Source of the DNA: Elusimicrobiota bacterium
Lineage (GTDB): Bacteria; Elusimicrobiota; UBA8919
Assembly (NCBI GenBank): GCA_043816185.1
Contig: JBDRIG010000093.1
Span: forward strand, 1 to 23,127
Reading direction: 5' to 3'
DNA: 23,127 bases
Made by a program: the position numbers and the translations under genes. The notes beneath the pieces are model-generated. The model was not told the origin of the DNA. It was given only the letters and a program-made list of their open reading frames with translations, and did not search any database. How positions within the stretch are numbered: position 1 is the first letter of the stretch; each line of letters opens with the position of its first letter. Positions 1 through 21,748 of this stretch are shown here, one piece after another.

Positions 1-2
1 TC

Positions 3-4553: not shown

Positions 4554-4602
4554 TTCTATACGAGTGTGTAATGCCTTTTTAATTGTCTCGAGATATAAAA
4601 TT

Positions 4603-6270: not shown

Positions 6271-6280
6271 TAGTAAAAAA

Positions 6281-6970
6281 ATGGAAAAAACAAATAAAAA
6301 AGTACTTCAATCGCCGCTAATATGGTTAACTGTATATTCTGATTGGATAACCAATATGACGTTGTTTTTCATTCTTTTGTTTTACGTTGCTTTTACTGCT
6401 ATGGACAAAGGATTGAGAGAAGATGAGATGTATAAACTTATGAAAGGAATGGTTTCAACGCTTAAAAAGCAAACTTTCAAAGAAGAATTAAACGAAACAA
6501 TATCAAAAATTACAGAAATTAAAGAGGTATCTGGTATAACTATTGCTGAGAAAGAAATGAAAGTGACATTATCAGAAACAATTCTTTTTGATTCTGGAAA
6601 TGCCGTATTGAAAGAGAATGGTAAAAAAATTTTAATCCAAGTAATGCAGAATTTTAAGGGTTTGCAATATCCAATATTAATTGAAGGACATAGTTGTAAT
6701 CTTCCCTTAAAACAAAAAATATCACCAAAGCTTAAAAAATGGGAGTTGGCTATTCTTCGTTCAGCTGGATCAGGTCCCTATAGGGATAATTGGGAACTTT
6801 CTACCACAAGATCAATCAAAATTGTTGAATTTTTGACGCATGAAAAAATTATTGAACCGAAGAGAATTAGGGTTGTTGCTTGTGGACCCTCAGAACCACT
6901 CTTCCCGAATGATGGCGAGGAAAATCGCAAAAAAAATCGTAGAATAGAAATAAAAATAATAAAAGAATGA
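6281..6970 (+). CDS. MotB-like stator protein 1 (N-terminal TM with conserved Asp, OmpA-like C-terminal domain)
   Basis: Likely start is ATG 6281. TM 'WLTVYSDWITNMTLFFILLFY' matches the MotB W..TY.D..TLL..FF.LL pattern. OmpA-like domain 'ILFDSGNAVLK...IEGHSCN...DNWELSTTR...KNRRIEI'. Confidence 0.85.
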   Translation: MEKTNKKVLQSPLIWLTVYSDWITNMTLFFILLFYVAFTAMDKGLREDEMYKLMKGMVSTLKKQTFKEELNETISKITEIKEVSGITIAEKEMKVTLSETILFDSGNAVLKENGKKILIQVMQNFKGLQYPILIEGHSCNLPLKQKISPKLKKWELAILRSAGSGPYRDNWELSTTRSIKIVEFLTHEKIIEPKRIRVVACGPSEPLFPNDGEENRKKNRRIEIKIIKE

Positions 6971-7557
6971 ACAGAAAAGATGTTAATAATTTAGCAAGCC
7001 AATCTTACCAACTGCCATATATTTCTTTAATGACCGTCCTGTGTATATACTTTATAAGCCTATATGTATATTTCAATAAGTTAGCTGCTAAAAACACAAA
7101 ACAAAAAAGTGAAATTACACAGGAAATATTTGATGAAATTGAAGAAATAAGTAAAGATGTGGCTAATGTAGAGATTACCCAAGATAAAATAAAAATAACA
7201 CTCCCGTCAGATATAGTATTTAATTTAGGCGATAGTAGTATAAAAAAAGAATTAGAACCAGTATTGAAAAAACTGGCTAAGACATTTAAACTCCTACCAG
7301 AAGAATATCTAATAATATTTGAAGGACATACCGATAATTCTCCCGTCTGGTACGGTGGAAACTTTTTTTCCAATTGGGAATTATCTGCATATAGAGCATT
7401 AAGCTTGCAATATTTTTTTGTCGACGAAGGTATTAAGCCAGAAAAAATGCGTATTGTAGGGTATGGCGAATTCAAATTATTGTTTCAAAATGATACCGAA
7501 GAGCATAAAACAGCTAATAGAAGAGTGGAAATTATATTGAAAAAAAGGGGAAAATAA
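6967..7557 (+). CDS. MotB-like protein 2 (TM lacking the conserved Asp, canonical OmpA/MotB peptidoglycan-binding domain)
   Basis: ATGA overlap with the upstream gene. TM 'YQLPYISLMTVLCIYFISLY'. Domain 'FEGHTDNSP...NWELSAYRA...VGYGEF...NRRVEI'. Confidence 0.85.
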   Translation: MNRKDVNNLASQSYQLPYISLMTVLCIYFISLYVYFNKLAAKNTKQKSEITQEIFDEIEEISKDVANVEITQDKIKITLPSDIVFNLGDSSIKKELEPVLKKLAKTFKLLPEEYLIIFEGHTDNSPVWYGGNFFSNWELSAYRALSLQYFFVDEGIKPEKMRIVGYGEFKLLFQNDTEEHKTANRRVEIILKKRGK

Positions 7558-8291
7558 TGATTGCTGATATAATGAGTATAATTTTTTTCTTTTCATCGGT
7601 TTATTTTTCTTTCCCTGACGGCGGAACAATGTTGGTAAAATTTGGTAAAGAAAATAATAATGAGATTGCGGATGTGATTAAAATGGATATGTTAAAAGGA
7701 GAAAAAGTATACAATGTTCTGTCGTTATTAGGATGGAAACCACGTATTGATTGGTTAATTTTAACCCCCTACGATAATAAATTGGATGATAAAATGTATC
7801 ACGTTTTTAACAACTTTAATATTGGGGAAATTTACTTCACTTTTGATTATCGAAAATTTAGTAAACGTTTTGAAATATTGAATGAAGATATTGGTAAAAT
7901 ACTTCTTCAAATATCGTTAAACAATTATCGAGTTTTTAATCTTAAGGAAAAGGAAACAATAGATCTTTTACAATCAATCTCGGGCGTTAAATTCTATAAA
8001 ATATTACCTATTGAAAAATTACAAGGCCTAAAAGAAAGCCAGCATATATGTTTTATCGTAGAGTATAATCAAATAAAGATTTTAATTACAAGCGAGTTAA
8101 CGAAAGAAGAGCAAAATTATATTATTACAAATTTTGCAGATAAAATTAAATCACAAATATTTTACCATCCAGCGAATATCGAACCAGAGTTTTTTTACGC
8201 AGTTAATGCGTCTTGGAAAATTCAATACGGCGAGCATAGAGCATTATTAATTAATGGTGAAAAGATTTTTGAGAGGAGGGATGCTAAATGA
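7557..8291 (+). CDS. Hypothetical protein, degenerate ComEC/Rec2-like metallo-beta-lactamase fold
   Basis: TAATG coupling. 'RIDWLILTPYDNK' and 'FIVEYNQIKILITSEL' resemble ComEC-MBL 'IDLLILTHPHxDH' and 'LxYGxxSFLFTGD' without the His/Asp ligands. Confidence 0.5.
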   Translation: MIADIMSIIFFFSSVYFSFPDGGTMLVKFGKENNNEIADVIKMDMLKGEKVYNVLSLLGWKPRIDWLILTPYDNKLDDKMYHVFNNFNIGEIYFTFDYRKFSKRFEILNEDIGKILLQISLNNYRVFNLKEKETIDLLQSISGVKFYKILPIEKLQGLKESQHICFIVEYNQIKILITSELTKEEQNYIITNFADKIKSQIFYHPANIEPEFFYAVNASWKIQYGEHRALLINGEKIFERRDAK

Positions 8292-8737
8292 AAAACAAAT
8301 CAAAAAGAAGTTTACTGATGTTGATTAAATCTAATATTCCAGGAATTAGAGAATATATTTCTCTATCTTTTATAGTTTTAATCATACTGTTATTTTTAGT
8401 GATATTCAGCAGTTATTTGTTTATTAAAAGTCTTCAAATAGGTCAGTATGCTGACACTATAATTAGTAGAAATGCGTATGTAATAATAATTTTTTGGATA
8501 GTATCCACAATAATTTTGTTTCTAATTTTTGTAAGGAAAATATTGGAAATGAGCGAGCATATTGTAGGCCCTACAAGAAGAATAGAACGAGAATTGGATA
8601 AAATACTTAATGGTGAAAAAAATATTCATATTGTTCTAAGAAGAAGCGATATCTTGTTTGATGTAGTAAAAAAAATCAATCAAGTATTAGATATGTTCGA
8701 AAAAAAATATGATAAAGATAGCAATGAAAATTTATAA
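8288..8737 (+). CDS. Small two-TM membrane protein with a C-terminal HAMP-like domain and no output domain
   Basis: SD gaggagg and ATGA overlap. Two hydrophobic segments, then 'SEHIVGPTRRIERELDKILNGE...LRRSDILFDVVKKINQVL'. Confidence 0.65.
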   Translation: MKNKSKRSLLMLIKSNIPGIREYISLSFIVLIILLFLVIFSSYLFIKSLQIGQYADTIISRNAYVIIIFWIVSTIILFLIFVRKILEMSEHIVGPTRRIERELDKILNGEKNIHIVLRRSDILFDVVKKINQVLDMFEKKYDKDSNENL

Positions 8738-10895
8738 AATCTGTATCTTGTTGTATCGAAAACCGACTTCGATACCGATTAAATCCGCGTCTATGTTTGG
8801 AGCGGAGCGTTTATGCTCATACGTCTTGACTATTTTTACATTGTTATTATTAAATGGATTTGTTACAGCAGTAGACAATAAAATGTTAATTATGCTCTCT
8901 TCGTCTGGATATAATGGTGGTAGCGGATTTATTGACGAAGCAAGAAGTGTTGCTACAGATTCGCAAGATAATATTATTGTTGTTGGTAAAAGCAACGACA
9001 ATCTTTCTATTGTAAAATATAACAAAAGTTTAATGCAGATTAATTCCAAAATAGAAATTACAACAGGAACGGGACGTGGTGTCACGACGGATAAACTTGA
9101 TAACATTATCGTTATAAGTGAAAAAAGTAATATTCAAGGAATTATAAGTTATTACACTATAAAATATGATTCAGGCTTAAACGTTATTTCTTCTACTACC
9201 TACAGTCAGGTTAGTATTAACAATATGCCTTCTGCGGTAGCGATAGACAACGAAGATAATATAATTGTTACGGGTTATAGTTCTGACGGAGCAACGCTGA
9301 GCTGGGTTACAATAAAATACGATAAAGATTTGAGGGAAATTTCCTCAGTGATTTACGACAGTGGTTGGGATGATAGAGCTACAAGTTTAGCAATAGATAG
9401 CCAGAACAATATAATTGTTTCAGGTTATAGTTCTGACGGAGCAACGCTGAATTGGGTTACAAAAAAGTATGACAAAAATCTAAATGAAATATTTTCAGTA
9501 ATTTATGACAGTGGCGGAATTGACATATCTAATGCTGTGGCAATAGATAGCCAGGACAATATAATTGTTTCGGGCTATAGTTTTGACGGAGCAACGCTGA
9601 ATTGGGTTACAAAAAAGTATGATAAAGATTTAAAAGAAATTTCCTCAGTAATTTATGACAGTGGCGGAATTGACATATCTAATGCTGTGGTAATAGATAG
9701 TAGAGATAATATAAGTGTTACAGGATACACAGACAATGAAGGTACATATGATTATCACACAATAAAATATGACAAAGATCTAAATAAAATATCTTCAGGA
9801 ACTTACAATGGGGGTGGAATCGACATATCTAATGCCGCAGCAATAGATAGTCAAGACAATATAATTGTTTCAGGTAAGAGTGCAGATGATTTTTTTACTA
9901 TAAAATATCTTGGGTCACCACAATTAACATCAGCATCAACTGGATATCAAGGGGAAACAATAGGTGTAATAATCGATGGAAGGAATTTCTATAACGGAGC
10001 AGTTGTTAAATTTGGCCATCAAGGAATTATTGTTTCTTCTTCTATGGAAATAATGTCCAACAGAATTTTCGCAAATGTAACTTTTTCTTCTTCCGTGCCA
10101 TTAGGAAAACATAGCATAGATGTTTCAAATATAGACGGTGAAACAACAACAAAATCAAACATTATTGAAGTGATGCGAAGAAAATTAATAAATTCGTTAA
10201 ACGATGAGGAAATCAATTCAGTGTTCGATACAGGAGAGATAGATTTATATATACCTGCTGGAACTTTTCTACAAGATTCCACGATGACAATTTCTTCAGT
10301 CGATAATGCTTTGCTGCAAAATGAAGGAATGTATACTTTTAGTGATGTATGTGTAAGAATTAATATTGAGCCACAAATTGTTTCTCAAAAAGAATTCATT
10401 TTAACCTTAAAATATCGCGATGAATACGTTGCTGGGTTAGACAAAAACCGTCTCGTTATTGTTTGGTATAGTTCTACAACCTTGAGTTGGTATGATATTC
10501 CATCAACTCAAAATATTGCCACTAACGAAGTTAGTTGTAAAACTAAAAACACTAATACCATATTTGCCTTAGCGACACTCCCACCTCTATACACTAATTT
10601 AAGTAATGTAAAGGCCTACCCTAATCCATATAAACCTGGCAGTAATGGGGATTTTGACAATACATCATTGGGTGAAGGGATGGTATTTTCAAATCTTACA
10701 CCAGAGTTTAATATAAAAATTTTTAATATTGCGGGGGAACTTGTTTTTGAATATGAAGGAGAATCAGATGTTTATGGAAATTATTTGTGGAATACAAAAA
10801 ATAATCAAGGTGCAAAATTACACAGTGGATTGTATATATATTTCATAAAAAATGATACACAACAAAAAAAAGGAAAAGTGTCTATAATTAGATGA
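8709..10895 (+). CDS. Secreted beta-propeller (SBBP/delta-60-like repeat) protein with IPT/TIG-like domain and T9SS type-A-like C-terminal sorting domain
   Basis: Start is 8709 or 8724. About 7 copies of 'AVAIDSQDNIIVSGYS......W.T.KYD.DL.EI...YDSGG.D'. IPT-like 'PQLTSASTGYQGETIGVIIDGRNF'. C-terminus 'VKAYPNPYKP...FSNL...IKIFNIAGELV...WNTKN...SGLYIYFI...KGKVSIIR*'. Confidence 0.8.
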   Translation: MIKIAMKIYKICILLYRKPTSIPIKSASMFGAERLCSYVLTIFTLLLLNGFVTAVDNKMLIMLSSSGYNGGSGFIDEARSVATDSQDNIIVVGKSNDNLSIVKYNKSLMQINSKIEITTGTGRGVTTDKLDNIIVISEKSNIQGIISYYTIKYDSGLNVISSTTYSQVSINNMPSAVAIDNEDNIIVTGYSSDGATLSWVTIKYDKDLREISSVIYDSGWDDRATSLAIDSQNNIIVSGYSSDGATLNWVTKKYDKNLNEIFSVIYDSGGIDISNAVAIDSQDNIIVSGYSFDGATLNWVTKKYDKDLKEISSVIYDSGGIDISNAVVIDSRDNISVTGYTDNEGTYDYHTIKYDKDLNKISSGTYNGGGIDISNAAAIDSQDNIIVSGKSADDFFTIKYLGSPQLTSASTGYQGETIGVIIDGRNFYNGAVVKFGHQGIIVSSSMEIMSNRIFANVTFSSSVPLGKHSIDVSNIDGETTTKSNIIEVMRRKLINSLNDEEINSVFDTGEIDLYIPAGTFLQDSTMTISSVDNALLQNEGMYTFSDVCVRINIEPQIVSQKEFILTLKYRDEYVAGLDKNRLVIVWYSSTTLSWYDIPSTQNIATNEVSCKTKNTNTIFALATLPPLYTNLSNVKAYPNPYKPGSNGDFDNTSLGEGMVFSNLTPEFNIKIFNIAGELVFEYEGESDVYGNYLWNTKNNQGAKLHSGLYIYFIKNDTQQKKGKVSIIR
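9240..9880 (+). repeat. 150-bp (50-codon) intragenic tandem repeat encoding propeller blades
   Basis: g(c/t)(g/a)ataga...(g/a)a(c/t)aatataa starts recur at 9240, 9390, 9540, 9690 and 9840; the 9390 and 9540 units are nearly identical. Confidence 0.9.
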
Positions 10896-12004
10896 AAAAT
10901 TATAATTTCCCAGTCGCTATTAGCTTAATCTTTTTTTTAATTACAAGTGCTGTTTTTTCGGCACAGTTTTTAAAAATAGGTATAGGGGCAAGACCCGTCG
11001 GTATGGGAGAAGCATTTACTGGATTATCAGACGATAGTTATGCTATTATATACAATCCCTCAGGATTATCGAAGATTAGTTATTTAGAACAAACTTTTAT
11101 GCACGGTATTTGGTTGGAAAATATAGGTATAAATTGGGCATCTGTCGTTCATCGTGTAACAAAGGTTGATACTATTGGCGTTGGTATAGAATATTTAACC
11201 AGTGGCGACATAGAAACGACTAATAAATATGGTAACAGTTTGGGTTTTTATGATATGTCAGACTTGATGTGTATATTATCTTATGCTAAAAAATTTAGAA
11301 ACATTTCAGTAGGTATAAATATTAAAACTTTTCAAGAAAAAATAGAAAACGAAAAAGCAAATGGAATGGCATTGGATATTGGCATGTTATTTAATTTGCA
11401 TAAATTACAATTAGGTATTGCTGCTCGCAATATTGGCAGTGGAATTAAATTTAGGGCAGTATCTGCACCGTTGCCATTGAATATACGATTAGGTGGGGCA
11501 TATAAAATTTTAGATAAGTTTTTAACTACTACGGATATCAGTTTTTATTCAGACAATAATAAACTTAACCTTCATCTTGGTGGAGAATATACTTATTATA
11601 AAATAAAAAATTTCATTTTTAATACTAGATTGGGATTTAATACAACCACCATTGGTTGTTTAGGTTTTTTATCAGGTTTATCTGCTGGTTTTGGGGTATA
11701 TCACAGTAATACTTGCATTGATTATGTATGGCAACCGTATGACTTTTTTGGTTCAACACATAGAATAAGTTTGACATGGAAATTTGATTCTAAAATAAAG
11801 AAAATAGAAATTGTAGGCAGAAAAACTGAATCTGAAATAAAAAATGTAGAAGATATGTATAAAGATGTAATTCAGTGGTATCAAAAAAAGATTTTAGTAG
11901 AAAATCTTTCAAAAAATGAACAGATAATAATTCTAAAAAGGATTATAGAAAAATTTGAACCCTTAGGCGTGGATGTTTCCGAAGTAAAAAGTGAATTAAA
12001 ATAG
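10892..12004 (+). CDS. PorV-like (UPF0164/FadL superfamily) outer-membrane beta-barrel with short helical C-terminal extension
   Basis: ATGA overlap with the upstream CTD protein. Signal peptide, then 'AQFLKIGIGARPVGMGEAFTGLSDDSYAIIYNPSGL', typical of PorV. Barrel end 'FGSTHRISLTWKF'. Confidence 0.8.
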   Translation: MKNYNFPVAISLIFFLITSAVFSAQFLKIGIGARPVGMGEAFTGLSDDSYAIIYNPSGLSKISYLEQTFMHGIWLENIGINWASVVHRVTKVDTIGVGIEYLTSGDIETTNKYGNSLGFYDMSDLMCILSYAKKFRNISVGINIKTFQEKIENEKANGMALDIGMLFNLHKLQLGIAARNIGSGIKFRAVSAPLPLNIRLGGAYKILDKFLTTTDISFYSDNNKLNLHLGGEYTYYKIKNFIFNTRLGFNTTTIGCLGFLSGLSAGFGVYHSNTCIDYVWQPYDFFGSTHRISLTWKFDSKIKKIEIVGRKTESEIKNVEDMYKDVIQWYQKKILVENLSKNEQIIILKRIIEKFEPLGVDVSEVKSELK

Positions 12005-12016
12005 ACTTCGTCGTAA

Positions 12017-12099
12017 GATTACGCAGATTGATAAAAAAGATTATATAAATACACCGTCGCGGCTTAATCTACATAATTCTGTTTATAATCTGTGAAATC
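12017..12099. repeat. Degenerate intergenic inverted repeat of the GATTACRCAGAT...ATCTGYGTAATC type
   Basis: gattacgcagatt (12017-12029) pairs with aatctgtgaaatc (12087-12099), with degenerate inner copies (gattatataaat, aatctacataat). Confidence 0.55.
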
Positions 12100-12129
12100 A
12101 TAATTTCTGTTAGTTTTTCAACAGAAATT

Positions 12130-12789
12130 ATGATAAATGGTATGATTTATATTCTTTTTATTTTCATTAATTTGGTATATGCCGAAAAACTTATCGATTC
12201 AGGAATTACAAAATACCTCGAGGGAGATCTTGTGTCAGCGGCTTCAACGTGGAATCAAGTTTTAATTAATGAACCTGATAATTTAGTTCTAAAAGAATTA
12301 GTAGGTAACTGCGATATTACTCTTGGTAAAGAAGCACTATTTAATAAGGATTATCAAACAGCATCTTTACATTTTAAGAATGCATGTAGCGTGTTGTCTG
12401 AAAATAAATGCAATTATTTAAGATCACTTATTTTTCTAACGGAGATAGAAAATAATTTTCCAACGGGGGATGAAATTCTTTATAAAGATATTTTAGAGTT
12501 AGATATAAAAAACGAAAAATGGAAAAATTTTGATCTAATATTTGCCAATAAAAAAATTGTTCAAACGACTACAAAATTCACTCAGCCAATGACACAGGAA
12601 AAATTTATTATACATTATATTTCTTACAACGAAACCTTTGAAACAATTGCGGAAAAATATTATAAAAATCATAATCTTTGGGAAAAGATATGGAAAAACA
12701 ATCCACACATTGAAAATCCACACAGACTTTTTGTGGGAGATAAGATTTTAGTTCCTATAGATCCAAATAATTCAGGAGGTGTAAAATGA
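12130..12789 (+). CDS. Exported TPR + LysM peptidoglycan-binding protein
   Basis: Signal-like N-terminus (…LVYA-E). TPR-like 'GITKYLEGDLVSAASTWNQVLINEPDN'. C-terminal LysM 'HYISYNETFETIAEKYYKNHNLWEKIWKNNPHIENPHRLFVGDKILVP'. Confidence 0.8.
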   Translation: MINGMIYILFIFINLVYAEKLIDSGITKYLEGDLVSAASTWNQVLINEPDNLVLKELVGNCDITLGKEALFNKDYQTASLHFKNACSVLSENKCNYLRSLIFLTEIENNFPTGDEILYKDILELDIKNEKWKNFDLIFANKKIVQTTTKFTQPMTQEKFIIHYISYNETFETIAEKYYKNHNLWEKIWKNNPHIENPHRLFVGDKILVPIDPNNSGGVK

Positions 12790-14165
12790 AAGTTGTTAAA
12801 TTTTTATCTATTCTATCTATTTTTTGTTTTGTTCTTGCTACTAATGTTCGGTCTTTAGATAAGACAGTAGCGGAGGTAGGTATTGAAGAAAGATTAAGGC
12901 AAACACTTACTTCGTACTTAGGGACACAAAATGTTATTGTAATAGTAAAAATCAAATTGTTTGGAAAAGAAGTTGAAGAAAAAACGGTTGGCAAAAAAAT
13001 TAGACGTTGGAACGAATTAGAAGAAATAATTTTACCAGGAGTTCCAGCAGCAACCGATATGATTAAAAAAACACCACTTGAAAAAGAAAAGTATCAAGGA
13101 ATAAAAAGTATATCTGTATCGGTTTTTATTGGGGAAAGTTTTCATGCGAAAACCATAGATGGAGCTAAAAAACTAATTTCAGATATGCTAAATCTAAATT
13201 TTAATACAGGTGATATACTAACTATCGAGAATTATAATGTACCAAAAAATTTCTCGAAATTATTTAAAATAAGTGAAATGATACCAATATTCGTAGCAGT
13301 TGTTTTACCTTTATTTTTTCTTGGAATTTTTTTTATAAGTAGATTTTTTATTAAAATAAACAGATTTTCTAAGGATTTAATCGAGGGTATATCTAAACAA
13401 AAAGTTGCAAGTGGAGTAGAAGCGATTGAAAGTATATCCGCAGGTATTGATAAAGCAGAAAAGTTACCATCACAACTTCGTATTGAAACTGGGGTATCGC
13501 AGGAGATCCAACAATTGTTTAGGTTTGTCAACGAAGATAATATTGAAGACATTAGAAAGATATTAAGTGAAGAATCGTCCGAAGCAATATACAAGATTTT
13601 GCATTATCTACCCACAAAGTTGGCATTTAGTGTTATTCCGGAAGAAAAGCAAAAAGAAGTTATCAAACACTTTATGAAAAAAGAATATACAACGCCCGAA
13701 GAAATAAAACAAATTGAAAATAAAATACGAATAAAACTTCAATATAATATTGGAGGAGCAGCAAAATTAGCTAAATTACTTCAAGGCAGTGGTAAAATTT
13801 CACAAGAAAATATAGTTGACATTTTAAAAAAGGGGGCACCTGAATTTGCATCTGAAGTGGAGGATAAATTATTTAAGTTTGAATATATTCTTGAATATGA
13901 TGAACTAAATTTAAAAAGGATATTTAGATCTGTCGGAGTTGATATTTTTGCACGATGTCTAAAAGATTGTTCTGAGGAAGTTATTAAAGAGTTTCATAAA
14001 AAATTGGGTCAAACAATAACTAATTTGATAAACGCGAAAATAAAAATTTTACCATCATTTGAAAATGAGGAAACAGACGCTAAATCCATATTGATGTTAA
14101 GCATAAAGAATTTAATGAAGAAAGAATTGATTCCAATATCAGAAAAGATTAAAAAAATGTTATAA
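12786..14165 (+). CDS. FliF-like ring-domain / TM / FliG-like (middle + C-terminal) fusion protein
   Basis: SD ggaggt and ATGA overlap. Periplasmic part 'EERLRQTLTSYLGTQNVIVIVKI...LPGVP...IKSISVSVFI...KKLISDMLNLNFNTGDILTIE' resembles the FliF C-terminal ring domain. TM at ~13278-13350. FliG-like 'ILSEESSEAIYKILHYLP', 'IGGAAKLAKLL', 'PEFASEVEDKLFKFEYILEYDELNLKRIFRSV'. Confidence 0.75.
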   Translation: MKVVKFLSILSIFCFVLATNVRSLDKTVAEVGIEERLRQTLTSYLGTQNVIVIVKIKLFGKEVEEKTVGKKIRRWNELEEIILPGVPAATDMIKKTPLEKEKYQGIKSISVSVFIGESFHAKTIDGAKKLISDMLNLNFNTGDILTIENYNVPKNFSKLFKISEMIPIFVAVVLPLFFLGIFFISRFFIKINRFSKDLIEGISKQKVASGVEAIESISAGIDKAEKLPSQLRIETGVSQEIQQLFRFVNEDNIEDIRKILSEESSEAIYKILHYLPTKLAFSVIPEEKQKEVIKHFMKKEYTTPEEIKQIENKIRIKLQYNIGGAAKLAKLLQGSGKISQENIVDILKKGAPEFASEVEDKLFKFEYILEYDELNLKRIFRSVGVDIFARCLKDCSEEVIKEFHKKLGQTITNLINAKIKILPSFENEETDAKSILMLSIKNLMKKELIPISEKIKKML

Positions 14166-14232
14166 CAAGAATGAAAAGATAGGATCAAGAATGAAGAAAT
14201 GGACAGACGATTTTTAGCGTTTTGTTGTTATT

Positions 14233-14349
14233 GCGACTGTGTCACAATGAGCTAAAAAGTTGCATTTTTATAGAAGATAGCAACTGATGGTAAAATATGG
14301 TACTGCAATTCAACACTAGATGGTAAAAGATGGATTGCGACACAGTCTG
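14233..14349. mobile_element. MITE copy 1 (~117 bp, non-autonomous, TIR GAGACTGTGTCRCAAT-like)
   Basis: TIRs gactgtgtcacaat (14235-14248) and attgcgacacagtc (14334-14347). The 113-bp core matches the reverse complement of 22916-23028 with 6 mismatches by manual alignment. Confidence 0.85.
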
Positions 14350-14567
14350 AATGACCAAAAGTAGAGCTATAACACAGTCTGATTGCGAACATTTTTCAGT
14401 AAAAACCATAGGATTCTGCTGATTGGCCTACCTATTCTAATCCTCGTTTTATTATCTCAAGCGGAAAACCAAGCCGTGCATCGCAATTTTCTCTCTCGCC
14501 AGGTGCAAGATGAAACAAAATCTTTTTGCTATCAAAGGTTATCACTACCTCGTTAAGTTCAGTTTGC

Positions 14568-14791
14568 CATTGTGGGCGACCTTGTCCGTCATTGTGGGCG
14601 AAGCGAAGCAATCTCGTCTTGTCCGTCGTGCCCCGCCCCCTGCCTGTCATCTCGACTGAAAGGAGAGATCTCTCTGTTTCGACTAGAAGAGATCCCTCGG
14701 TCGCTACGCTTCCTTGGGATGACAAGCGGGATTGCTACGGCTTCCTTCGGAAACCACGCAATAACCAAAAGTGGAGTTGTGACACAGTCTC
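14568..14791. repeat. Composite palindromic repeat: outer CGTCATTG...GCAATCTC / GGGATTGC...CAATAAC element containing a nested TGTCATC...GATGACA element, ending in a MITE-type TIR
   Basis: Outer arms at 14587-14615 and 14728-14765. Inner 80-bp imperfect palindrome at 14645-14724. TIR ttgtgacacagtctc at 14777-14791. GC-rich relative to the surroundings. Confidence 0.8.
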
Positions 14792-14856
14792 TACGACGAT
14801 TGAATCTTCCGTGTCCATCTGCGTCAACCTGTAACAGAGATTTTCAGCAAAAAAAC

Positions 14857-14884
14857 TTGATTTTTATTTTAAACTTTGTATAAT
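14857..14884 (+). promoter_or_regulatory. Putative sigma70 promoter of the bamA-lpx operon
   Basis: TTGATT (14857-14862), 16-nt spacer, TATAAT (14879-14884); bamA ATG at 14894. Confidence 0.6.
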
Positions 14885-14893
14885 CAAAATATT

Positions 14894-17155
14894 ATGAATA
14901 AAAAAATTGTTTTGTTTTTTATGTGTTGGACGGTTGCTTTAACTTTGCTTTTTTCTCAAGATTTGAAACCAAAAAAAATTATGGCCATTGAGTTTTCAGG
15001 TTTAAGAAATGTTAAAGTACAAGCTGTAAAAGATGCTATAAAAATGAGCAAAGGCGACTTATTTAGTCAAAAATCCGTTGATGAAGATATTCTAAATATT
15101 TATAAACTTGGTTTTTTTTCAGACGTTGCGGTCGATGTTTCTGATTTCAAAGATGGTACAAAAATAACAATTATTTTGCAGGAAAAACTCATAGTAAAAA
15201 AAATTGACTTTAAGGGCAATAAAGAATTTTCCAATAGAAAATTAAAAGAAGAAATTTCTTCAAAAGAAAAAGAGGGTTATGATACTAGAAAAATTTTAGA
15301 CGATTGTAGTAAAATGACCATGCTTTACAAAGATAAAGGTTACGCTGATGTGAATATTGGAGATTTTTCAACCACCGACGATATAACTGGTTTTGCAACG
15401 GTTACCTTTGCAATTACCGAAGGTAAAAAAGTACTTATTGGCGATGTTACAATCGATAATGTAAAAAATTTTAAGGCAAAAAAAATTAAAAAACTTTTTA
15501 ATACCAAGAGAAAAAAGATTTATAAAGATGAAACTTTCAAAACCGATATTGAAAAAGTAGAATTATTTTACAAAGACCGTGGATATTTGGCTGTGAAAAT
15601 TGCCGAGCCAGAAATTACTTACAACGATACACTTACAAAAATGTTTATAAAAATTAAAATTGAGGAAGGGAGACAATACAAGAATGGAAAAGTAGATTTT
15701 TCGGGGAATATTGTAGTATCTTCGAACGATCTTCTAAAAGTTTTTAATTTTAAAAAAGGCGAAATTTTTAATCAATCCTTGTATGATGAGGGTAAGTTAA
15801 ATGTCAAGTCATTTTATGATGAGATTGGCTATATTCATGCAAAATTTTCCGAAAATTTGGATAAAAACGACGAAACAGGTATTGTAAATTCACTTTTCAC
15901 AATTATCGAAAACGACATTGTTTATATCGATAAGATTTATATTGACGGTAATACCAAAACAAAGGAATATGTAATAAAAAGAGAACTTCTTGTAAAGGAA
16001 GAGGATGTTTTTGCTGTAGGAAAAATTAGAAAAAGCCAAGAGCGGCTCTACAATCTTGGATTTTTTAAGGATGTAAAGGTTGATATAGAGCAAGCAAGTC
16101 AACCAAACAAAGCCAATCTTATCATTGATGTCGAAGAAGATAGAACAGGGCTTGTTTCTCTCGGTGCGGGATATTCCTCGGTTAACAAAGTCGTGGGCAC
16201 ACTTCAAGTTACAGAATTAAATCTTTTTGGCAGAGGGCAAAAGTTGAATCTTACATACGAGTTTGGTTCCCGTCGGCAAAATTATGAAATCAGGTTTACC
16301 GAACCATATTTTTTTAGAAAAAAACTTTCATTTGGGGCAGATATTTTTAATACAAGCGTCTGGAGAAATTATGGTAACGATTCTACTGCTTACAGAGAAA
16401 AAAGAAGTGGTGGCGACATAAGAATTGGAAAACCGTTTTCTAATATTTCCGCTATTAATTTTATTTACACATACGAAGAGGTAGAAGTTTTTGATATAGA
16501 TAGTGATTTAGTTGGTCAAATAACTGCTTCAAAAGATGTTTCGTCTTCATTAACGTCCGTAATCAGTTATGATACAAGGGATAATGTGTTTGATACAAAC
16601 AGGGGTTCTAAACATTCACTTTCAGTAAAACTTGCAGGTGGTCCTTTAGGTGGAACTATCAATTTTTATAAACCAACATTAACAGCATCAAAGTTTATTC
16701 CAACACTTTGGAAATTTGTATTTGGATTTAATTCACAAATATCATATGTTAAGGAATTTTCACCGTCGGGAGAAGTTCCTATTTACGAAAGGTATTTTTT
16801 AGGTGGAGCCGATACGGTGCGTGGCTATGATTTTGGAGAAATAGGACCATCTGAAAAAGGGAAAATAATTTTTGTATCTAATTTGGAGTACAAATTTCCA
16901 CTTGTTCAGGAAAAAGGACATTCTATCTTATCCGCTGCGATATTTGCCGATATAGGTGGTTCTTGGAGTAATAGTGAAGATGTGAATTTAGAAATTGGTT
17001 CAGAAGAAAACCAACTTAAATCTGGTGCAGGGTTTGGCATTCGCATAAGACCGATGCCAGTTTTGCCTATTAGAATTGATTGGGGATATGGATTCAATCA
17101 TAAGTCTGGAGAACAATTATCACAATTTTATTTTACAATGGGACAGGTATTTTAG
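14894..17155 (+). CDS. bamA: Outer membrane protein assembly factor BamA
   Basis: Start ATG 14894 (MNKKIVLFF). Five POTRA-like domains ('IYIDGNTKTKEYVIKREL', 'SQERLYNLGFF'), 'NLFGRGQ', 'ERYFLGGADTVRGY', C-terminal 'FYFTMGQVF'. Confidence 0.96.
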   Translation: MNKKIVLFFMCWTVALTLLFSQDLKPKKIMAIEFSGLRNVKVQAVKDAIKMSKGDLFSQKSVDEDILNIYKLGFFSDVAVDVSDFKDGTKITIILQEKLIVKKIDFKGNKEFSNRKLKEEISSKEKEGYDTRKILDDCSKMTMLYKDKGYADVNIGDFSTTDDITGFATVTFAITEGKKVLIGDVTIDNVKNFKAKKIKKLFNTKRKKIYKDETFKTDIEKVELFYKDRGYLAVKIAEPEITYNDTLTKMFIKIKIEEGRQYKNGKVDFSGNIVVSSNDLLKVFNFKKGEIFNQSLYDEGKLNVKSFYDEIGYIHAKFSENLDKNDETGIVNSLFTIIENDIVYIDKIYIDGNTKTKEYVIKRELLVKEEDVFAVGKIRKSQERLYNLGFFKDVKVDIEQASQPNKANLIIDVEEDRTGLVSLGAGYSSVNKVVGTLQVTELNLFGRGQKLNLTYEFGSRRQNYEIRFTEPYFFRKKLSFGADIFNTSVWRNYGNDSTAYREKRSGGDIRIGKPFSNISAINFIYTYEEVEVFDIDSDLVGQITASKDVSSSLTSVISYDTRDNVFDTNRGSKHSLSVKLAGGPLGGTINFYKPTLTASKFIPTLWKFVFGFNSQISYVKEFSPSGEVPIYERYFLGGADTVRGYDFGEIGPSEKGKIIFVSNLEYKFPLVQEKGHSILSAAIFADIGGSWSNSEDVNLEIGSEENQLKSGAGFGIRIRPMPVLPIRIDWGYGFNHKSGEQLSQFYFTMGQVF

Positions 17156-17167
17156 GAGAAAAAAACA

Positions 17168-18178
17168 GTGACACATTTATATATTTATACGAAAAATAAG
17201 ATTGGTGATGTGCTTATTTTACACAGAAAAACTTTATCATTCTATCGCAATATCACCATTGCTACTTTGTGTCGCCACATTGCCACCGTTGTTTTATTAT
17301 TTATCGCCTTATCATCTTATCGTCCTACCACATGTCTCTACGGTGCCACAATTTCAAATCAGCGTGTTGGATGTGTGGATATGAATCGCATTATGGAGGA
17401 ATATCCTGAAGCAAAAAAAATTAAGGATGAATTATCGGCAGACCTCAGTATGCGTAAAAAAAATATAAAAAATTTTGAAGCGCAGATTGACTTAGTAGAA
17501 TTGGAAATTAAGCAGATGGAAGAGCAATTTCAAAAATATAACGAAGAACAAAAAAAAATCAAAGAAAATCAAAATAAGATACCCATAGTTACAACGACAG
17601 ATATATCATCTTCTACATGCACGGACATTGTTGACGCTGCTGTTGAATCTTCTAAAGAAGATATCGTCGTTAAATCTTCATCTGAGGCCATAACTCAAAT
17701 ATCGTCTTCTACAGGCACGGACATTGTTGATGCTGCCGTTGAACCTTCTGAAGAAGATGTTGTTAGGTCTTCATCTGAGACTATAGCTCAAACACTATCT
17801 TCTACAGAAAACACCGTTGTCGAATCTTCCATAGAAGACATTGCTGTTGAGTCTTCCGAAGAAGATGCTGTTGTTAAGCCTTCGTCTAAGTTTATAGCTC
17901 AAATATCATCTCCGACATTTACAATTGAGGACATAGAGGCAAAAGAAATCGCATTAGAAGAACAAAAAAGCGATCTTGAAAAATATATTATCGTCACAAA
18001 ACAGGAAGAGAAAACAATAAACAGCAAAGTAAAAAAAAAGATAATGGGAAAAATTTATGACATTATAAAAGAGACCTGTGATGCGGAGGGGCTTACTGTA
18101 TTGGTCGATTCTTGCAATCTTATTTATGGTGAGGACGCACAAGATATAACCGAAAAAGTTCTAAAGAAGTTGAAATAA
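17168..18178 (+). CDS. skp: Skp/OmpH periplasmic chaperone with a large acidic Ser/Thr-rich repeat insertion
   Basis: SD aggag plus GTG, directly after bamA. 'RVGCVDMNRIMEEYPEAKK', coiled coil, C-terminal 'IYDIIKETCDAEGLTVLVD...LIYGEDAQDITEKVLKKLK'. Confidence 0.85.
   Translation: MTHLYIYTKNKIGDVLILHRKTLSFYRNITIATLCRHIATVVLLFIALSSYRPTTCLYGATISNQRVGCVDMNRIMEEYPEAKKIKDELSADLSMRKKNIKNFEAQIDLVELEIKQMEEQFQKYNEEQKKIKENQNKIPIVTTTDISSSTCTDIVDAAVESSKEDIVVKSSSEAITQISSSTGTDIVDAAVEPSEEDVVRSSSETIAQTLSSTENTVVESSIEDIAVESSEEDAVVKPSSKFIAQISSPTFTIEDIEAKEIALEEQKSDLEKYIIVTKQEEKTINSKVKKKIMGKIYDIIKETCDAEGLTVLVDSCNLIYGEDAQDITEKVLKKLK
17603..17920 (+). repeat. Intragenic ~96-bp (31-32 aa) imperfect tandem repeats in skp
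   Basis: ISSSTCTDIVDAAVESSKEDIVVKSSSEAITQ (17603) / ISSSTGTDIVDAAVEPSEEDVVRSSSETIAQ (17699), plus a degenerate third unit. Confidence 0.85.
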
Positions 18179-18237
18179 GATTTGATATAAAAAATGGTGA
18201 TATAGTTTTTATATATCAACGTATCGACGGAATTTGT

Positions 18238-19326
18238 ATGGAAAAGACATTAAAAGAAATTGCGGAAATATCAGGTGGTGAAGTTTTTGGCAGTGGCGAC
18301 AGTGGTGACGAAAATATAATTATTACAAATGTAGCAGGAATTGTTGAGGCAAAAAAAGGAGATATTACTTTCGTTGCTAATCCAAAATACGAGCAATATA
18401 TTAGTTCAACAAATGCATCTGCAATAATAATATCTGAAAATCAAAAAGACAAAGTTAAAATTCCCGCTATCATTTCAAAAAACCCATACCTTTCATATGC
18501 AAAAATAATTATGTTCATTGCCAAAGAAATAGAGAAACATCCGTCGGGAATTTCCCTACAAGGGTTCGCTATGACGGGAAAGGAGCCCATTCGAGCTAAA
18601 AATTATTCGATTTCTAAATTGGCAAAAATAGGTGAAAATGTAACAATTTCAGATTTTGTTGTGATTGATGAAGATGCACAAATCGATAACGAGACAATTA
18701 TTTATCCCAATTGTTATATCGGCAGAAATTCAAAAATAGGAAAAAAGTGTCTAATATATCCGAATGTCACAATAAGAGAAAATGTAATTATTGGCGATAA
18801 TGTGATAATTCATTCGGGATCGGTTATTGGTTGTGATGGGTTTGGATATATACAGGATAACGGTTCTTTGAAAAAAATTCCTCAAATAGGAATTGTTGAA
18901 ATTGCCGACGATGTGGAAATAGGTGCAAATGTCACAATTGATAGGGCAACGACTGGAAAAACATTTATTGGGCGTGGTACAAAAATTGATAATCTTGTCC
19001 AAATTGCCCACAATGTTTGTGTTGGTGAAAATTCCATAATCGTTTCGCAAGCAGGAATTTCGGGTAGCACAAAAATAGGAAACGGTGTTACAGTTGCAGG
19101 CCAGGCGGGACTCGTAGGGCATATTACCGTCGGTGATGGAGCAATAATCGCTGCACAATCAGGGGTTATTGGCGATGTTGCGCCTCGTGAAGTTGTTTCT
19201 GGATATCCAGCAAGGCCTCATAAACAGGCAATGAAAATTTATGCATTAATACAAAAACTTCCGCAATTATTTGAAGAAATTAAAAAACTCAAAACGCAGT
19301 TAACTGTGGATAAAAAATGCAAATGA
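18238..19326 (+). CDS. lpxD: UDP-3-O-(3-hydroxyacyl)glucosamine N-acyltransferase
   Basis: 'AKKGDITFVANPKY', hexapeptide repeats, 'IGCDGFGY', 'KIPQIG.V.I.DDVEIGANVTIDRA', 'TKIDNLVQIAHNV', 'GYPARP'. Confidence 0.97.
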   Translation: MEKTLKEIAEISGGEVFGSGDSGDENIIITNVAGIVEAKKGDITFVANPKYEQYISSTNASAIIISENQKDKVKIPAIISKNPYLSYAKIIMFIAKEIEKHPSGISLQGFAMTGKEPIRAKNYSISKLAKIGENVTISDFVVIDEDAQIDNETIIYPNCYIGRNSKIGKKCLIYPNVTIRENVIIGDNVIIHSGSVIGCDGFGYIQDNGSLKKIPQIGIVEIADDVEIGANVTIDRATTGKTFIGRGTKIDNLVQIAHNVCVGENSIIVSQAGISGSTKIGNGVTVAGQAGLVGHITVGDGAIIAAQSGVIGDVAPREVVSGYPARPHKQAMKIYALIQKLPQLFEEIKKLKTQLTVDKKCK

Positions 19327-19368
19327 TAATAAATTATCGACGGTAATCTGTGTGTAAATGGAGCGACG

Positions 19369-20685
19369 ATGAATAAACAAAAAACAATTTCAAAAGAAAT
19401 TTCTTATTCAGGCACAGGGCTTCATACGGGTAACAATGTTTTAATTAAATTAAAACCTGCACAGGAAAATACGGGAATAATTTTTATAAGAACCGATTTA
19501 CCAGATAACCCTAAAATAAAAGCAGATATTTCAAACGTTCTTATAACCGTGCGAGGTACGACCATTGGGCTTGATGAAAAAATAGCCGTTCATACAGTAG
19601 AACATCTTCTGGCAACATTATTTGTTTTTGGTATTGACAATTTGATAATTGAAATGGATTCCAACGAACCGCCAATTGCCGACGGTAGTGCCTTACCTTT
19701 TATTGAACTTATAAAAAATGCTGGAATAACCGAACTTTTAGCGGAAAAAAAATATTTCAATCTTTCGAGCCCAGTTGTTTATAGAAATGACGATATTCTT
19801 ATAACCGCAACTCCTTGTGACAAATTTCATATTTCTTGTACGATTATTTATAACCACCCGCTATTAAAAACTCAGTTTCTATCTCTTGATATAACCCAAG
19901 AAATTTTTGAAAAGGAAATTGCACCAGCTAGAACTTTCTGCTTTGATTACGAAATCGAGGCACTTAAAAATAAAGGACTTGCAAAAGGTGGTTCGTTAGA
20001 AAATGCCATAGTAATAGGTGCAAAAAAGATTTTTAGTGAATTGCGTTTTGACGATGAATTTGTACGACACAAAATTCTTGATTTAATTGGCGATATTTCA
20101 CTTCTGGGAAATTTTTCTGAATTAGAAATTTCTGCGATAAAATGTGGCCATAAGAATAATATAGAATTTGCGAAAAAAATTGCTTTAAGTCAAAAAAATT
20201 CAACTACGCCTTCTTCAGGAAAACCATTGTGGCAAATACCCGACGGTAAAATGATTGACATTAATGAAATAAAAGCAACTATTCCGCACAGATATCCGTT
20301 TCTTTTTATTGATAAGGTAATTTTGGTTGAAGAAGTAAAAAGAGCAGTCGGAATAAAAAATATATCTATTGGAGAACAATTTTTTCAAGGGCATTTTCCT
20401 GAACAGCCGATAATGCCAGGAGTGTTGATTGTGGAGGCGTTGGCACAGACCGCCTGTGTTTTATTTTTATCAAAGCCAGAATTGAAAAGTAAAAAACTCG
20501 CATACTTTATGTCAATAAATAATGTAAAATTTCGCAAACCGGTTTTTCCTGGCGATGCACTTTATCTTGATGTTGAAGTGTTAAAAGCAAGACAGACGAC
20601 TGGAATAATACGAGGATGTGCTTTTGTGAACGGAAAACCTGTAACGGAAGCCGAGTTTACATTTATGTTAGTCGATAAACCCTAA
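19369..20685 (+). CDS. lpxC-fabZ: Bifunctional LpxC deacetylase / FabZ 3-hydroxyacyl-ACP dehydratase fusion
   Basis: LpxC 'GTGLHTG', 'TVEHLLA', 'EPPIADGSA', 'IAPARTF', 'EFVRHKILDLIGD'. FabZ 'IPHRYPFLFIDKV', 'FFQGHFPEQPIMPGVLIVEALAQ', 'FRKPVFPGD'. Confidence 0.97.
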   Translation: MNKQKTISKEISYSGTGLHTGNNVLIKLKPAQENTGIIFIRTDLPDNPKIKADISNVLITVRGTTIGLDEKIAVHTVEHLLATLFVFGIDNLIIEMDSNEPPIADGSALPFIELIKNAGITELLAEKKYFNLSSPVVYRNDDILITATPCDKFHISCTIIYNHPLLKTQFLSLDITQEIFEKEIAPARTFCFDYEIEALKNKGLAKGGSLENAIVIGAKKIFSELRFDDEFVRHKILDLIGDISLLGNFSELEISAIKCGHKNNIEFAKKIALSQKNSTTPSSGKPLWQIPDGKMIDINEIKATIPHRYPFLFIDKVILVEEVKRAVGIKNISIGEQFFQGHFPEQPIMPGVLIVEALAQTACVLFLSKPELKSKKLAYFMSINNVKFRKPVFPGDALYLDVEVLKARQTTGIIRGCAFVNGKPVTEAEFTFMLVDKP

Positions 20686-20693
20686 AATGCAGA

Positions 20694-20851
20694 GTAGGCA
20701 TGGTTTATAACCGTGTCGTGTGCCAGTTGTTTGCGACCGCGCAGCCTTCGACAATCTCGGTGTAGCGGTTAGGATTGCAATCCCACGGCAAGTCGCATAG
20801 CAATGCGACCGCAACAGTCGTTGCTGTTGTAGGCACGGTTTGTAACCGTGC
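20694..20851. repeat. Cluster of GTAG-tagged REP-like hairpins
   Basis: GTAGGCATGGTTtatAACCGTGTC (20694-20717) and GTAGGCACGGTTtgtAACCGTGC (20829-20851) in direct orientation. They flank an inverted doublet tGTAGCGGT...ACCGCAACa (20761-20816) with internal palindromes ggattgcaatcc and gtcgcatagcaatgcgac. Confidence 0.8.
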
Positions 20852-20935
20852 AAGATTTATACTTCTTTGCCACTGTTATGGTGGTAGTTTTGTGTCGGTC
20901 TCGCATGCGAATTTCACGTACGAACGGAGTGAACA

Positions 20936-21733
20936 ATGATTCATCCAACTGCAATAATAGACGAGTCAGCAAAAATTGAAAAAAATGTTGAAATTGGGCC
21001 TTATGCCATTATTGGTAAAAATACTATTTTATCAAGTGGGGTAAGTGTTGGAGCATTTACCGTTATTGAATATGCTAAAATTGGTAAAAATTGCAAAATT
21101 TTTTCTTCTGCATTTATAGGTGTCGCTCCTCAGGATTTAAAATATCAAAATGAGCCAACAGAGGTTATAATTGGAGATAATTGTATTATTCGAGAGTGTG
21201 TAACAATTAGCAGAGGAACATTGGCACACGGACACGGACTAACTAAAATTGGTAGCAATTGTCTTTTTATGACATATTCGCACGTTGCTCATGACTGTAT
21301 CGTTGGTGACAATGTAATTATGGCAAATTGTGCAACACTTGCAGGGCACGTTGAAATAGAGGATTTTGTGGTCATTGGTGGATTGGTTGCAATTCACCAG
21401 TTTGTAAAGATTGGAAGATTTTCTATGCTCGGAGGTGGAGCAATGGTTGTGCTTGATATTCCACCATTTTGTCAGGCACAGGGTGATAGAGCAAAATTGG
21501 TCGGTTTAAATTTAATTGGAATTAAAAGACATGGATTTACTGAAAAACAGATTAGAGACATTAAATCAGCATACAAAACCATTTTTATATCAGATATTAC
21601 CGTCGCAGAAGCAGTTGATCAACTTGAGGCATCAAAACCATTAAAAGAGGTTAAAGAATTTATTGATTTTATAAAAAATTCAAAAAGAGGAATAACAAGA
21701 CCTGGACGAATGCCGAAAAATAATATCGAATAA
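20936..21733 (+). CDS. lpxA: Acyl-ACP--UDP-N-acetylglucosamine O-acyltransferase
   Basis: 'MIHPTAIID', 'PQDLKY', 'IRECVTISRGT', 'SHVAHDC', 'LAGHV', 'HQFVKIG', 'GLNLIG.KR'. Confidence 0.97.
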   Translation: MIHPTAIIDESAKIEKNVEIGPYAIIGKNTILSSGVSVGAFTVIEYAKIGKNCKIFSSAFIGVAPQDLKYQNEPTEVIIGDNCIIRECVTISRGTLAHGHGLTKIGSNCLFMTYSHVAHDCIVGDNVIMANCATLAGHVEIEDFVVIGGLVAIHQFVKIGRFSMLGGGAMVVLDIPPFCQAQGDRAKLVGLNLIGIKRHGFTEKQIRDIKSAYKTIFISDITVAEAVDQLEASKPLKEVKEFIDFIKNSKRGITRPGRMPKNNIE

Positions 21734-21748
21734 AACAAAAAAAACTTT

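Follow-up and report, generated by a model that had tools for sequence, protein, structure and literature searches.

FliF-FliG Fusion Gene

The DNA analyzed here, henceforth the window, is a stretch of 23,127 nucleotides that makes up the entire contig JBDRIG010000093.1 (C93) of an Elusimicrobiota bacterium (assembly GCA_043816185.1), whose genome of 1.44 Mb is assembled in 112 contigs and is 94.28% complete. One of its genes encodes an inner-membrane protein of a single chain that is the C-terminal half of FliF (ring-building motif 3 [RBM3], a shortened insertion at the collar position, and the second transmembrane helix [TM2]) joined to the middle and C-terminal domains of FliG (FliG-M and FliG-C). 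A natural FliF-FliG fusion had been proposed for this gene in a first-pass annotation made from the DNA sequence without database searches, and the open reading frame (ORF) lies at the position and on the strand given there; both halves of the proposed fusion were recovered by fold and by a family profile, as described below. The ORF begins with ATG, and its start and the stop of the LysM gene ahead of it overlap by 4 bases. Table 1 lists the parts of the fusion protein and, below them, the genes upstream of it in the window.

Table 1. The fusion gene, the parts of its product, and the genes upstream of it (coordinates are those of the window; aa, amino acids)
Feature	Position	Strand	Basis
Fusion gene, FliF(RBM3)-TM-FliG(M+C), 459 aa	12786..14165	+	ORF, Pfam, AlphaFold model, fold matches, profile vs. 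PDB
N-terminal hydrophobic helix, residues 1–19	12786..12842	+	Model helix 2–18; hydrophobic N-terminus across family alignment
FliF RBM3-like ring-building domain, residues 20–153	12843..13244	+	Structural alignment, Foldseek, family profile
Transmembrane helix, FliF TM2 counterpart, residues 162–186	13269..13343	+	Model helix 162–208; profile alignment to FliF
FliG middle domain, residues 250–321	13533..13748	+	Pfam FliG_M; fold matches
FliG C-terminal (torque) domain, residues 347–451	13824..14138	+	Pfam FliG_C; fold match 8ucs_H
Giant Ig-repeat surface protein, C-terminal 1516 codons (continues from contig C24)	3..4553	+	Pfam Big_3_5, Invasin_D3, Big_1
PorP/SprF-like outer-membrane barrel with C-terminal TPR, 568 aa	4564..6270	+	Pfam PorP_SprF 3.8e-11, TPR
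MotB-like stator subunit, 247 aa	6227..6970	+	Pfam OmpA 9e-14; MotB_plug 1.7e-4, below cut-off
MotB', second MotB-like protein, 196 aa	6967..7557	+	Pfam OmpA 3e-13
Two ORFs, 244 and 149 aa	7557-8291 and 8288-8737		No Pfam family at E ≤ 0.01
CHU_C (type IX secretion-type) C-terminal domain protein, 728 aa	8709..10895	+	Pfam CHU_C 5.4e-7
UPF0164/PorV-like outer-membrane barrel, 370 aa	10892..12004	+	Pfam UPF0164 1.1e-7; PorV 9.8e-4, below cut-off
LysM (peptidoglycan-binding) protein, 219 aa	12130..12789	+	Pfam LysM 2.7e-5

Architecture of the Fusion Protein

An AlphaFold model of the fusion protein, computed with an alignment of 70 family members as input, has a mean pLDDT (predicted local distance difference test) of 84.5. 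The helix with which the model begins (residues 2–18) coincides with the signal-like N-terminus noted in the first-pass annotation and, as far as the model indicates, may represent either a signal peptide or a first membrane helix akin to FliF TM1. The single transmembrane segment of that annotation falls into a long helix (residues 162–208), the hydrophobic part of which spans residues ∼163–186, and the linker that leads from this helix to FliG-M (residues 209–240) has a pLDDT of less than 50. Residues 250–458 are all-helical and FliG-like. A Foldseek search against PDB placed structures of FliG-M plus FliG-C at the top (E 2e-8 to 2e-6), followed by entries of the FliF MS-ring and RBM3 (E 2e-3 to 3e-2, probability 1.0). 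In addition, a family profile built from the alignment of 70 sequences was searched against PDB sequences, which provided a comparison independent of structure.

The compact periplasmic domain that had been recognized from the sequence alone is modeled as helix 21–45, strand 50–58, insertion 59–105, strand 106–115, helix 121–135, and strand 144–149, and this alpha-beta-beta-alpha-beta order is that of ring-building motifs. The insertion carries the motif LPGVP at residues 83–87 and is located where FliF and SpoIIIAG have their collar insertion. In structural alignments with VIA-align, model residues 20–153 best matched Salmonella FliF residues 232–438 (Z 13.8, rmsd [root-mean-square deviation] 1.7 Å over 96 residues, 21% identity), followed by PrgK domain 2 and SpoIIIAG (Z 10.1 each), EscJ (Z 9.3), and FliF chains containing RBM2 (Z 8.5–9.0). 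A domain without similarity to the ring-building motifs of FliF and PrgK, on which the first-pass annotation had said its own reading would founder, is thus not what was found. Profile residues 128–238 matched Salmonella FliF residues 404–523, which comprise the end of RBM3 and the second membrane helix (E 4.3e-9), residues 35–161 matched a 144-aa FliF chain (E 8.7e-7), and residues 36–77 matched SpoIIIAG (E 6e-4). Over the 70 aligned sequences P84 is invariant, and L83, G85, P87, G142, D143, and the pair G323–G324 are conserved in at least 90%; the PG and GD.L.I motifs that had been picked out from the sequence are therefore conserved columns of the family.

The FliG-M and FliG-C domains that had likewise been read from the sequence both score above their Pfam cut-offs, FliG_M marginally (residues 256–319, 25.3 bits vs. 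a cut-off of 25) and FliG_C with 41 bits versus 23.3 (residues 347–444); the NCBIfam FliG equivalog TIGR00207 matches with E 8e-14 and 51.7 bits, well under its cut-off of 226.7. Profile residues 254–468 matched FliG-MC of T. maritima with E 3.3e-61. Chains of the FliG middle domain align with the model at Z 9.1–9.6, and model residues 364–451 align with the FliG chain of a MotAB-FliG complex (8ucs_H) at Z 12.3 and an rmsd of 1.9 Å over 87 residues. Three FliG motifs had been indicated in the first-pass annotation, and all three fall into the corresponding alignment columns: the Gly-Gly pair is kept and LFKFEYI occupies the column of MFxFEDI, but the residues of EHPQ are not retained, these columns reading E-E-S-S-E in the window protein and E-x-P-E/D in its paralogues. 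The EHPQR-type motif of FliG-M has a role in FliM binding.

MgtE also has to be considered here, because the C-terminal region could instead be a cytoplasmic domain of the MgtE-N type, held on a membrane anchor, that serves magnesium sensing or regulation and bears no relation to a motor. There is a weak Pfam match to MgtE_N (E 0.14), and profile residues 244–308 matched MgtE chains with E 1.4e-3 to 3.5e-3. However, the match to FliG is better by ∼58 orders of magnitude and spans both FliG-M and FliG-C, and the conserved neighbors of the family are MotA and MotB (see below). We give this alternative almost no credence, and an MgtE-N-like C-terminal region, the other outcome that the first-pass annotation had named as fatal to it, was not observed.

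The annotation was also right that the N-terminal ring domains of FliF and FliG-N are absent: neither PF01514 (YscJ_FliF, covering RBM1 and RBM2) nor FliG_N, the FliF-binding domain, has a Pfam match in the fusion protein. Altogether RBM1, RBM2, the FliF cytoplasmic tail, and FliG-N are missing, and a covalent link between FliF and FliG would make these parts unnecessary.

A Fusion Family in a Phylum without Flagella

An exhaustive search of a protein library clustered at 50% retrieved 754 proteins with E ≤ 0.001, of which 157 have E ≤ 1e-10; most of the best 150 matches are 450–500 aa in length and align from about residue 25 to 450. A word-indexed protein search returned one relative only (P0001, 26% identity), and the fusion protein is 36% identical to P0002 over residues 18–457. 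Against the profile of its own family (A1), of which it is itself a member, the window protein scores 374.6 bits (E 3.9e-113).

The family was identified in 109 of 301 genomes of the phylum and in 18 of the 41 genomes of a sample of relatives. Two families of organisms with small genomes are nearly devoid of it (1 of 89 and 1 of 88 genomes, together 2 of 177), whereas it occurs in 106 of the 123 genomes of the remaining families. Up to 6 matches were obtained per genome, and several in many of the carriers. A set of 30 related loci from GenBank is labeled mostly Elusimicrobia or Elusimicrobiota, with a few Clostridia, Sumerlaeota, or Deltaproteobacteria. The window protein belongs to a large family that is present in most free-living members of a phylum lacking flagella. 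FHIPEP (FlhA) and PF01514 had no match in the 94.28%-complete genome, where FliM, FliN, and the rod, hook, and filament families were not searched, and FHIPEP had none in the 41 related genomes; as controls, the models matched in four flagellated genomes. The non-flagellar setting supposed in the first-pass annotation is supported by these searches.

One might take such a gene for a decaying relic of a lost flagellum that has no present function, given that the genome has neither FlhA nor a full FliF and that FliG-N and the EHPQR-type motif are gone. Against this, the reading frame is open, the family is present in 109 of the 301 genomes, many of which have several paralogues, gene order is kept across families of the phylum, and there are invariant residues over the 70 sequences; we consider a relic very improbable.

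For phylogenetic analysis, 40 loci from relatives were represented by one family member each, which together with the window copy and a paralogue on contig C2 of the same genome gave a set of 42 members. A quick maximum-likelihood tree of this set has four clades and, apart from them, the window protein alone on a branch of 2.32 changes per column. Its identity to the copies of relatives in the tree set is at most 26%. Among the 301 genomes, however, it has orthologues in G064 (36% identity, E 8e-74), G213, G205, and G071. Members of clade IV have an extra C-terminal TPR module (residues ∼559–632 in the locus L043, 9078–11027).

Stator Genes at Related Loci

Genes encoding MotA are found among the genes listed downstream of the fusion gene (up to seven) in 31 of the 41 related loci. 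MotA is encoded directly downstream in all 13 loci of clade III and in nine of ten loci of clade II, the tenth of which ends at a contig end, two genes later in all five loci of clade I, and in the same stretch in four of the 13 loci of clade IV. Clustering of the neighboring genes identified MotA (31 members) and MotB (53 members) as the commonest partners, with two MotB genes usually following MotA. Among the 30 named GenBank loci, which are of the clade IV type, MotA is encoded within the 6-kb flank in 12, and many of the others are cut by contig ends.

Pfam analysis of three representative loci revealed MotA_ExbB plus MotA_N and MotB_plug plus OmpA; judged by these domains, the partners of the family are MotA and MotB of the flagellar type and not of the Exb/Tol type. 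The same three loci encode PorP/SprF/UPF0164/TraF_2-like barrels with TPR and LysM, CHU_C-tailed proteins, histidine kinases, and proteins of ∼1,100 to 2,300 aa that match no family. The first-pass annotation had placed the fusion gene outside a flagellar operon, which holds, but the conserved membership in MotA/MotB operons had escaped it, including the two MotB-like genes of the window itself. Histidine kinases recur in loci of clades II and IV. Clade IV loci have a conserved family-less protein of ∼800–1,300 aa encoded downstream and a giant protein of ∼2,300 aa upstream.

The paralogue on contig C2 (L007, 6459–12197) is a FliF-FliG fusion of 634 aa (FliG_C 1e-22), and its gene is followed by genes for a 357-aa protein with a weak FlgO match, a 325-aa TPR protein, MotA (273 aa), and MotB (232 aa) with plug and OmpA domains. 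This order is kept in all five clade I loci. The window copy shares the fusion architecture with this module and differs from it in lineage, in partner set (an adhesin, PorP/SprF-like and PorV-like barrels, CHU_C and LysM proteins, and two MotBs), and in gene order.

Gene Set of the Window Copy

The genes at 4564–14165 are tightly packed, with overlaps or with gaps of no more than 125 bases, and none of the genes of the window matches MotA. At its left end (window 1–141), C93 is identical over 141 bases to one end of contig C24, and it overlaps no other contig in this way; overlaps of 141 bases between contig ends are frequent in this assembly. The difference 10228 minus 139 is divisible by 3, and the reading frames of the giant ORF therefore agree across the overlap. 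On the same strand, C24 encodes a TamB-like protein (1768 aa) and MotA (254 aa), and it also holds codons 1–3409 of the giant protein (DUF2341, Big_3_5), which when joined would have ∼4,900 aa (3409 + 1516 − 47). The MotA of C24 matches flagellar MotA/PomA chains over its full length (E 5.5e-40 to 1.7e-31) and has retained an Arg and a Glu that in the alignment stand opposite charged positions of PomA.

In G064 the genes are arranged in the order giant adhesin, small ORF, PorP/SprF-TPR barrel, fusion, MotA, MotB, MotB', CHU_C protein, PorV-like barrel, and LysM protein, and all except MotA have the corresponding gene of the window as their best match (34–43% identity). Orthologues of the giant protein are encoded upstream of the fusion gene in G064, G213, and G071, and that of the PorP/SprF-TPR barrel (43% identity) directly upstream of it in G064. 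The CHU_C protein has an orthologue (42% identity) in the G064, G213, and G205 loci and the PorV-like barrel in G064 and G213, the loci of both of which end with the LysM orthologue; the MotB orthologue follows MotA in G064. The G071 and G205 loci show parts of this order, and MotAB was not found in the stretch fetched from G213. The window together with C24 thus holds the same nine genes as the G064 locus, rearranged, plus two unmatched ORFs (7557–8737) that look like an insertion into the operon, since they were not found in the orthologous loci of G064 and G213. The 244-aa ORF of this pair was considered as a diverged MotA and rejected, as it has one N-terminal hydrophobic stretch and no MotA_ExbB match.

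Elsewhere in the genome, a 1743-aa ORF on contig C112 (∼37089–42320, minus strand; 1746-aa open frame) matches the model of SprA, the type IX translocon, in four segments with a best E of 1.3e-17, all below the family cut-off.

Downstream of the fusion gene, the window encodes BamA, a Skp/OmpH-like protein, LpxD, an LpxC-FabZ fusion (438 aa), LpxA, and LpxI (14876–22537). A functional link of the fusion gene to outer-membrane biogenesis, through these genes or through TamB on C24, was rejected because the genes that follow LysM in G064 and G213 do not match BamA of the window. The spacer between the fusion gene and BamA (14166–14875) is GC-richer and consists of dispersed repeats. One of ∼130 bases (∼14216–14360) gave 76 matches including those of the window itself, with ∼94% identity and on 54 of the 112 contigs; a second copy in the window lies at 22905–23034, several copies are located at contig ends, and shorter dispersed repeats occur further along the spacer. 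ORFs of 97–103 aa on both of its strands are probably artefacts of the repeats. A search of the spacer for an RNA gene gave no Rfam match at the gathering score or at E ≤ 1 and no tRNA or tmRNA.

A Possible MotAB-Driven Rotor

Our interpretation starts from the observed domain homologies, the fusion family, the absence of a flagellar export gate, and the conserved gene set. On balance, we think that the fusion protein is probably the rotor subunit of a non-flagellar envelope machine driven by MotAB. In such a machine RBM3 domains would pack laterally into a ring in the inner membrane, like RBM3 of FliF, and the ring would display a crown of FliG-C domains to the cytoplasmic face of peptidoglycan-anchored MotA5B2 units. 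Ion flow would rotate MotA, MotA would push the ring, and the work would be passed on to periplasmic and outer-membrane partners so as to move or export a surface adhesin. This output is suggested by the pairing of the adhesin with a PorP/SprF barrel in the company of CHU_C and PorV-like proteins, and with it the machine would correspond in function to GldLM, the motor of gliding and type IX secretion.

A number of points weigh against such a rotor, some of which concern the ring. The match of residues 100–150 to Pfam YscJ_FliF_C (E 0.2, 12.5 bits) is below the cut-off of 23.8 bits, and that of a clade III relative (E 8.5e-4, 20.2 bits) is as well. The collar insertion, which is modeled with a pLDDT of less than 50, is far shorter than that of FliF, as 134 model residues span 207 FliF residues. 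The very long branch makes the placement of the window protein in the tree unsure. Ring assembly, rotation, contact with MotA, and output are steps that we infer. A four-copy complex prediction for residues 24–158 scored 0.00 and 0.01 (mark 0.42), which speaks neither for nor against a ring.

Other points concern the motor. In flagellar FliG, acidic positions of the torque helix contact MotA. Where the torque helix of T. maritima FliG reads K-D-E-L-E, that of the window protein has N-A-K-I-K and no acidic residues, and going by these residues the classical charge pairing of the window copy with MotA may be altered or lost. Of the cytoplasmic gear surface envisaged in the first-pass annotation, the acidic torque-helix residues are missing from the window copy and kept in its paralogues (K-Q-E-x-E in clades II and III, K-E-E-M-D in clade IV, and R...D-E or R...D-G/A in clade I); in the nearest relatives of the window protein, the first acidic position is occupied by R, K, H, or Q. 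In this genome MotA lies ∼16 kb away from the fusion gene, beyond a contig break, and the gene order is rearranged. In MotB' the Asp of the membrane helix is replaced by Ser, and in the G064 orthologue by Ala; MotB of the window keeps this Asp in the alignment (Y-S-D motif), and in clade II paralogue loci it is retained by both MotBs. MotB' has no Pfam match to MotB_plug, and its sequence suggests a non-conducting, peptidoglycan-binding stator partner in the window lineage. Finally, neither GldL nor GldM had a match in the genome in searches whose controls were also silent, and a replacement of GldLM by the proposed motor is not established.

Several of these features could also mean that the window copy is a diverged paralogue that forms a stator-independent, static membrane ring or scaffold for the adhesin and the barrels, with the C2 paralogue as the working rotor. 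The long branch, the loss of acidic torque-helix residues, the displaced MotA, MotB' without its Asp, and a MotB below the MotB_plug cut-off fit such a scaffold, and so does the C2 paralogue, which keeps the R...DE pattern in its torque helix and an intact adjoining MotA-MotB pair. Yet orthologous loci in which fusion, MotA, MotB, and MotB' are contiguous likewise have a torque helix that is basic or neutral and a MotB' without the Asp, and these changes are therefore traits of the lineage and not signs of decay in this genome. The ORF is moreover intact, and the G-G linker, LPGVP, and GD columns are conserved. We regard a static scaffold as unlikely.

A second alternative to a rotor is that the fusion protein acts as a force transducer or adaptor without a full rotating ring, recruiting MotAB and being pushed or pulled singly or in small oligomers. 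Ion-motive energy would then be passed to the outer-membrane barrels much as TonB, TolA, or GldM pass it on, and not by continuous rotation. The minimal periplasmic part, a single RBM with a short insertion, would suit such a role, as would partners that are outer-membrane barrels with TPR and LysM modules, without a rod, and to our knowledge all other non-flagellar motors of the MotA/ExbB type act through transducers. On the other hand, RBM3 alone builds a 33–34-mer S-ring in the best-matching FliF entries, according to their titles; in 8ucs FliG_C is contacted from outside the MotA pentamer, an arrangement fitting for a ring or track; and the stators are of the flagellar type (plug plus OmpA) and not of the Exb/Tol type. 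In our judgment a transducer is rather unlikely, although less so than a static scaffold, and we retain the MotAB-driven rotor as the preferred reading.

A broader version of the rotor hypothesis, which we put forward tentatively and with more doubt than confidence, is that in free-living Elusimicrobiota, and perhaps in other phyla, there operates a second class of rotary machine, independent of any flagellum, in which a one-protein ring and MotAB drive PorP/SprF barrels and giant adhesins, with several paralogous motors per cell. Depending on the rooting against FliF and FliG, the fusion family could be a surviving relative of a pre-flagellar rotor-stator pair. We know of torque generation by MotAB on FliG only from flagella; here, stators of the flagellar type are encoded with a FliF-FliG fusion in a sample of the phylum in which none of 41 genomes had FlhA. 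If a driven ring were to prove true, it would be the smallest natural rotor known and attractive for structural work, it would supply the missing motor for surface adhesin systems outside Bacteroidota, and it would make the origin of the flagellar rotor and stator testable, that is, whether the pair arose before the export apparatus or by later exaptation.

Comparison with Known Systems

With the flagellar rotor (the MS-ring of FliF together with FliG, driven by MotAB or PomAB), the fusion protein shares the RBM3 fold with a collar-position insertion and a membrane helix after it, FliG-M and FliG-C, the Gly-Gly linker, the MFxFEDI-type column, and partners that are MotA and MotB with plug and OmpA domains. 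It differs in being one polypeptide without RBM1, RBM2, FliG-N, and the EHPQR-type motif, in a genome without FlhA. The partners in the window are outer-membrane barrels, a giant adhesin, and a CHU_C protein, and the torque helix has no acidic residues.

With the apparatus of gliding and type IX secretion in Bacteroidota, the window shares a giant repeat adhesin gene followed by a PorP/SprF barrel gene and, encoded alongside, a CHU_C domain (5.4e-7), the PorP_SprF match (3.8e-11), a PorV-like barrel, and a motor of the MotA/ExbB superfamily. Gliding Bacteroidota have the SprB-SprF arrangement and the GldLM motor. The motor proposed here would, unlike GldL5M2, be MotAB acting on a ring that bears FliG.

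A natural FliF-FliG fusion is not unprecedented, as the Chlamydiaceae case shows. The FliF of Chlamydiaceae, as characterized in the passages of Bergeron 2016 (PeerJ, PMC4768692) that deal with it, is a natural fusion of FliF and FliG(M) of ∼330 aa with two RBMs and, on the FliG side, a FliG-M-like region only. The same passages describe its FliF periplasmic region as shortened, discuss it as a possible partner of the injectisome, and note that these bacteria are not thought to be flagellated (PMC4768692). In both cases a non-flagellate organism has a FliF RBM, a membrane helix, and a cytosolic domain resembling FliG on a single chain. Compared by description only, the family of the window differs in having one RBM3-like RBM, FliG-M plus FliG-C, and MotA and MotB encoded alongside. 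FliF-FliG fusions made in the laboratory in Salmonella and Vibrio still assemble rings, according to three reports (PMC6079021, PMC11481574, PMC4768692). These constructs join full-length FliF and FliG, whereas the natural protein lacks everything between RBM3-TM2 and FliG-M.

Numerous homologues of motAB and fliG have been noted in Elusimicrobiota without flagella, with a role given as unclear in the part of the preprint that mentions them (10.1101/2022.07.08.499144), and a survey of MotAB evolution treats stators with plug and OmpA domains as specific to flagella in its relevant sections (PMC12505986). In the full-text literature searched, which does not cover subscription journals, we found no description of the RBM3-TM-FliG architecture and its operons. 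The fusion family is an essentially undescribed, widespread, putative non-flagellar rotor-stator family, in which the window copy represents a diverged lineage whose torque helix is altered and which is tied to a gene set for an adhesin and outer-membrane barrels.

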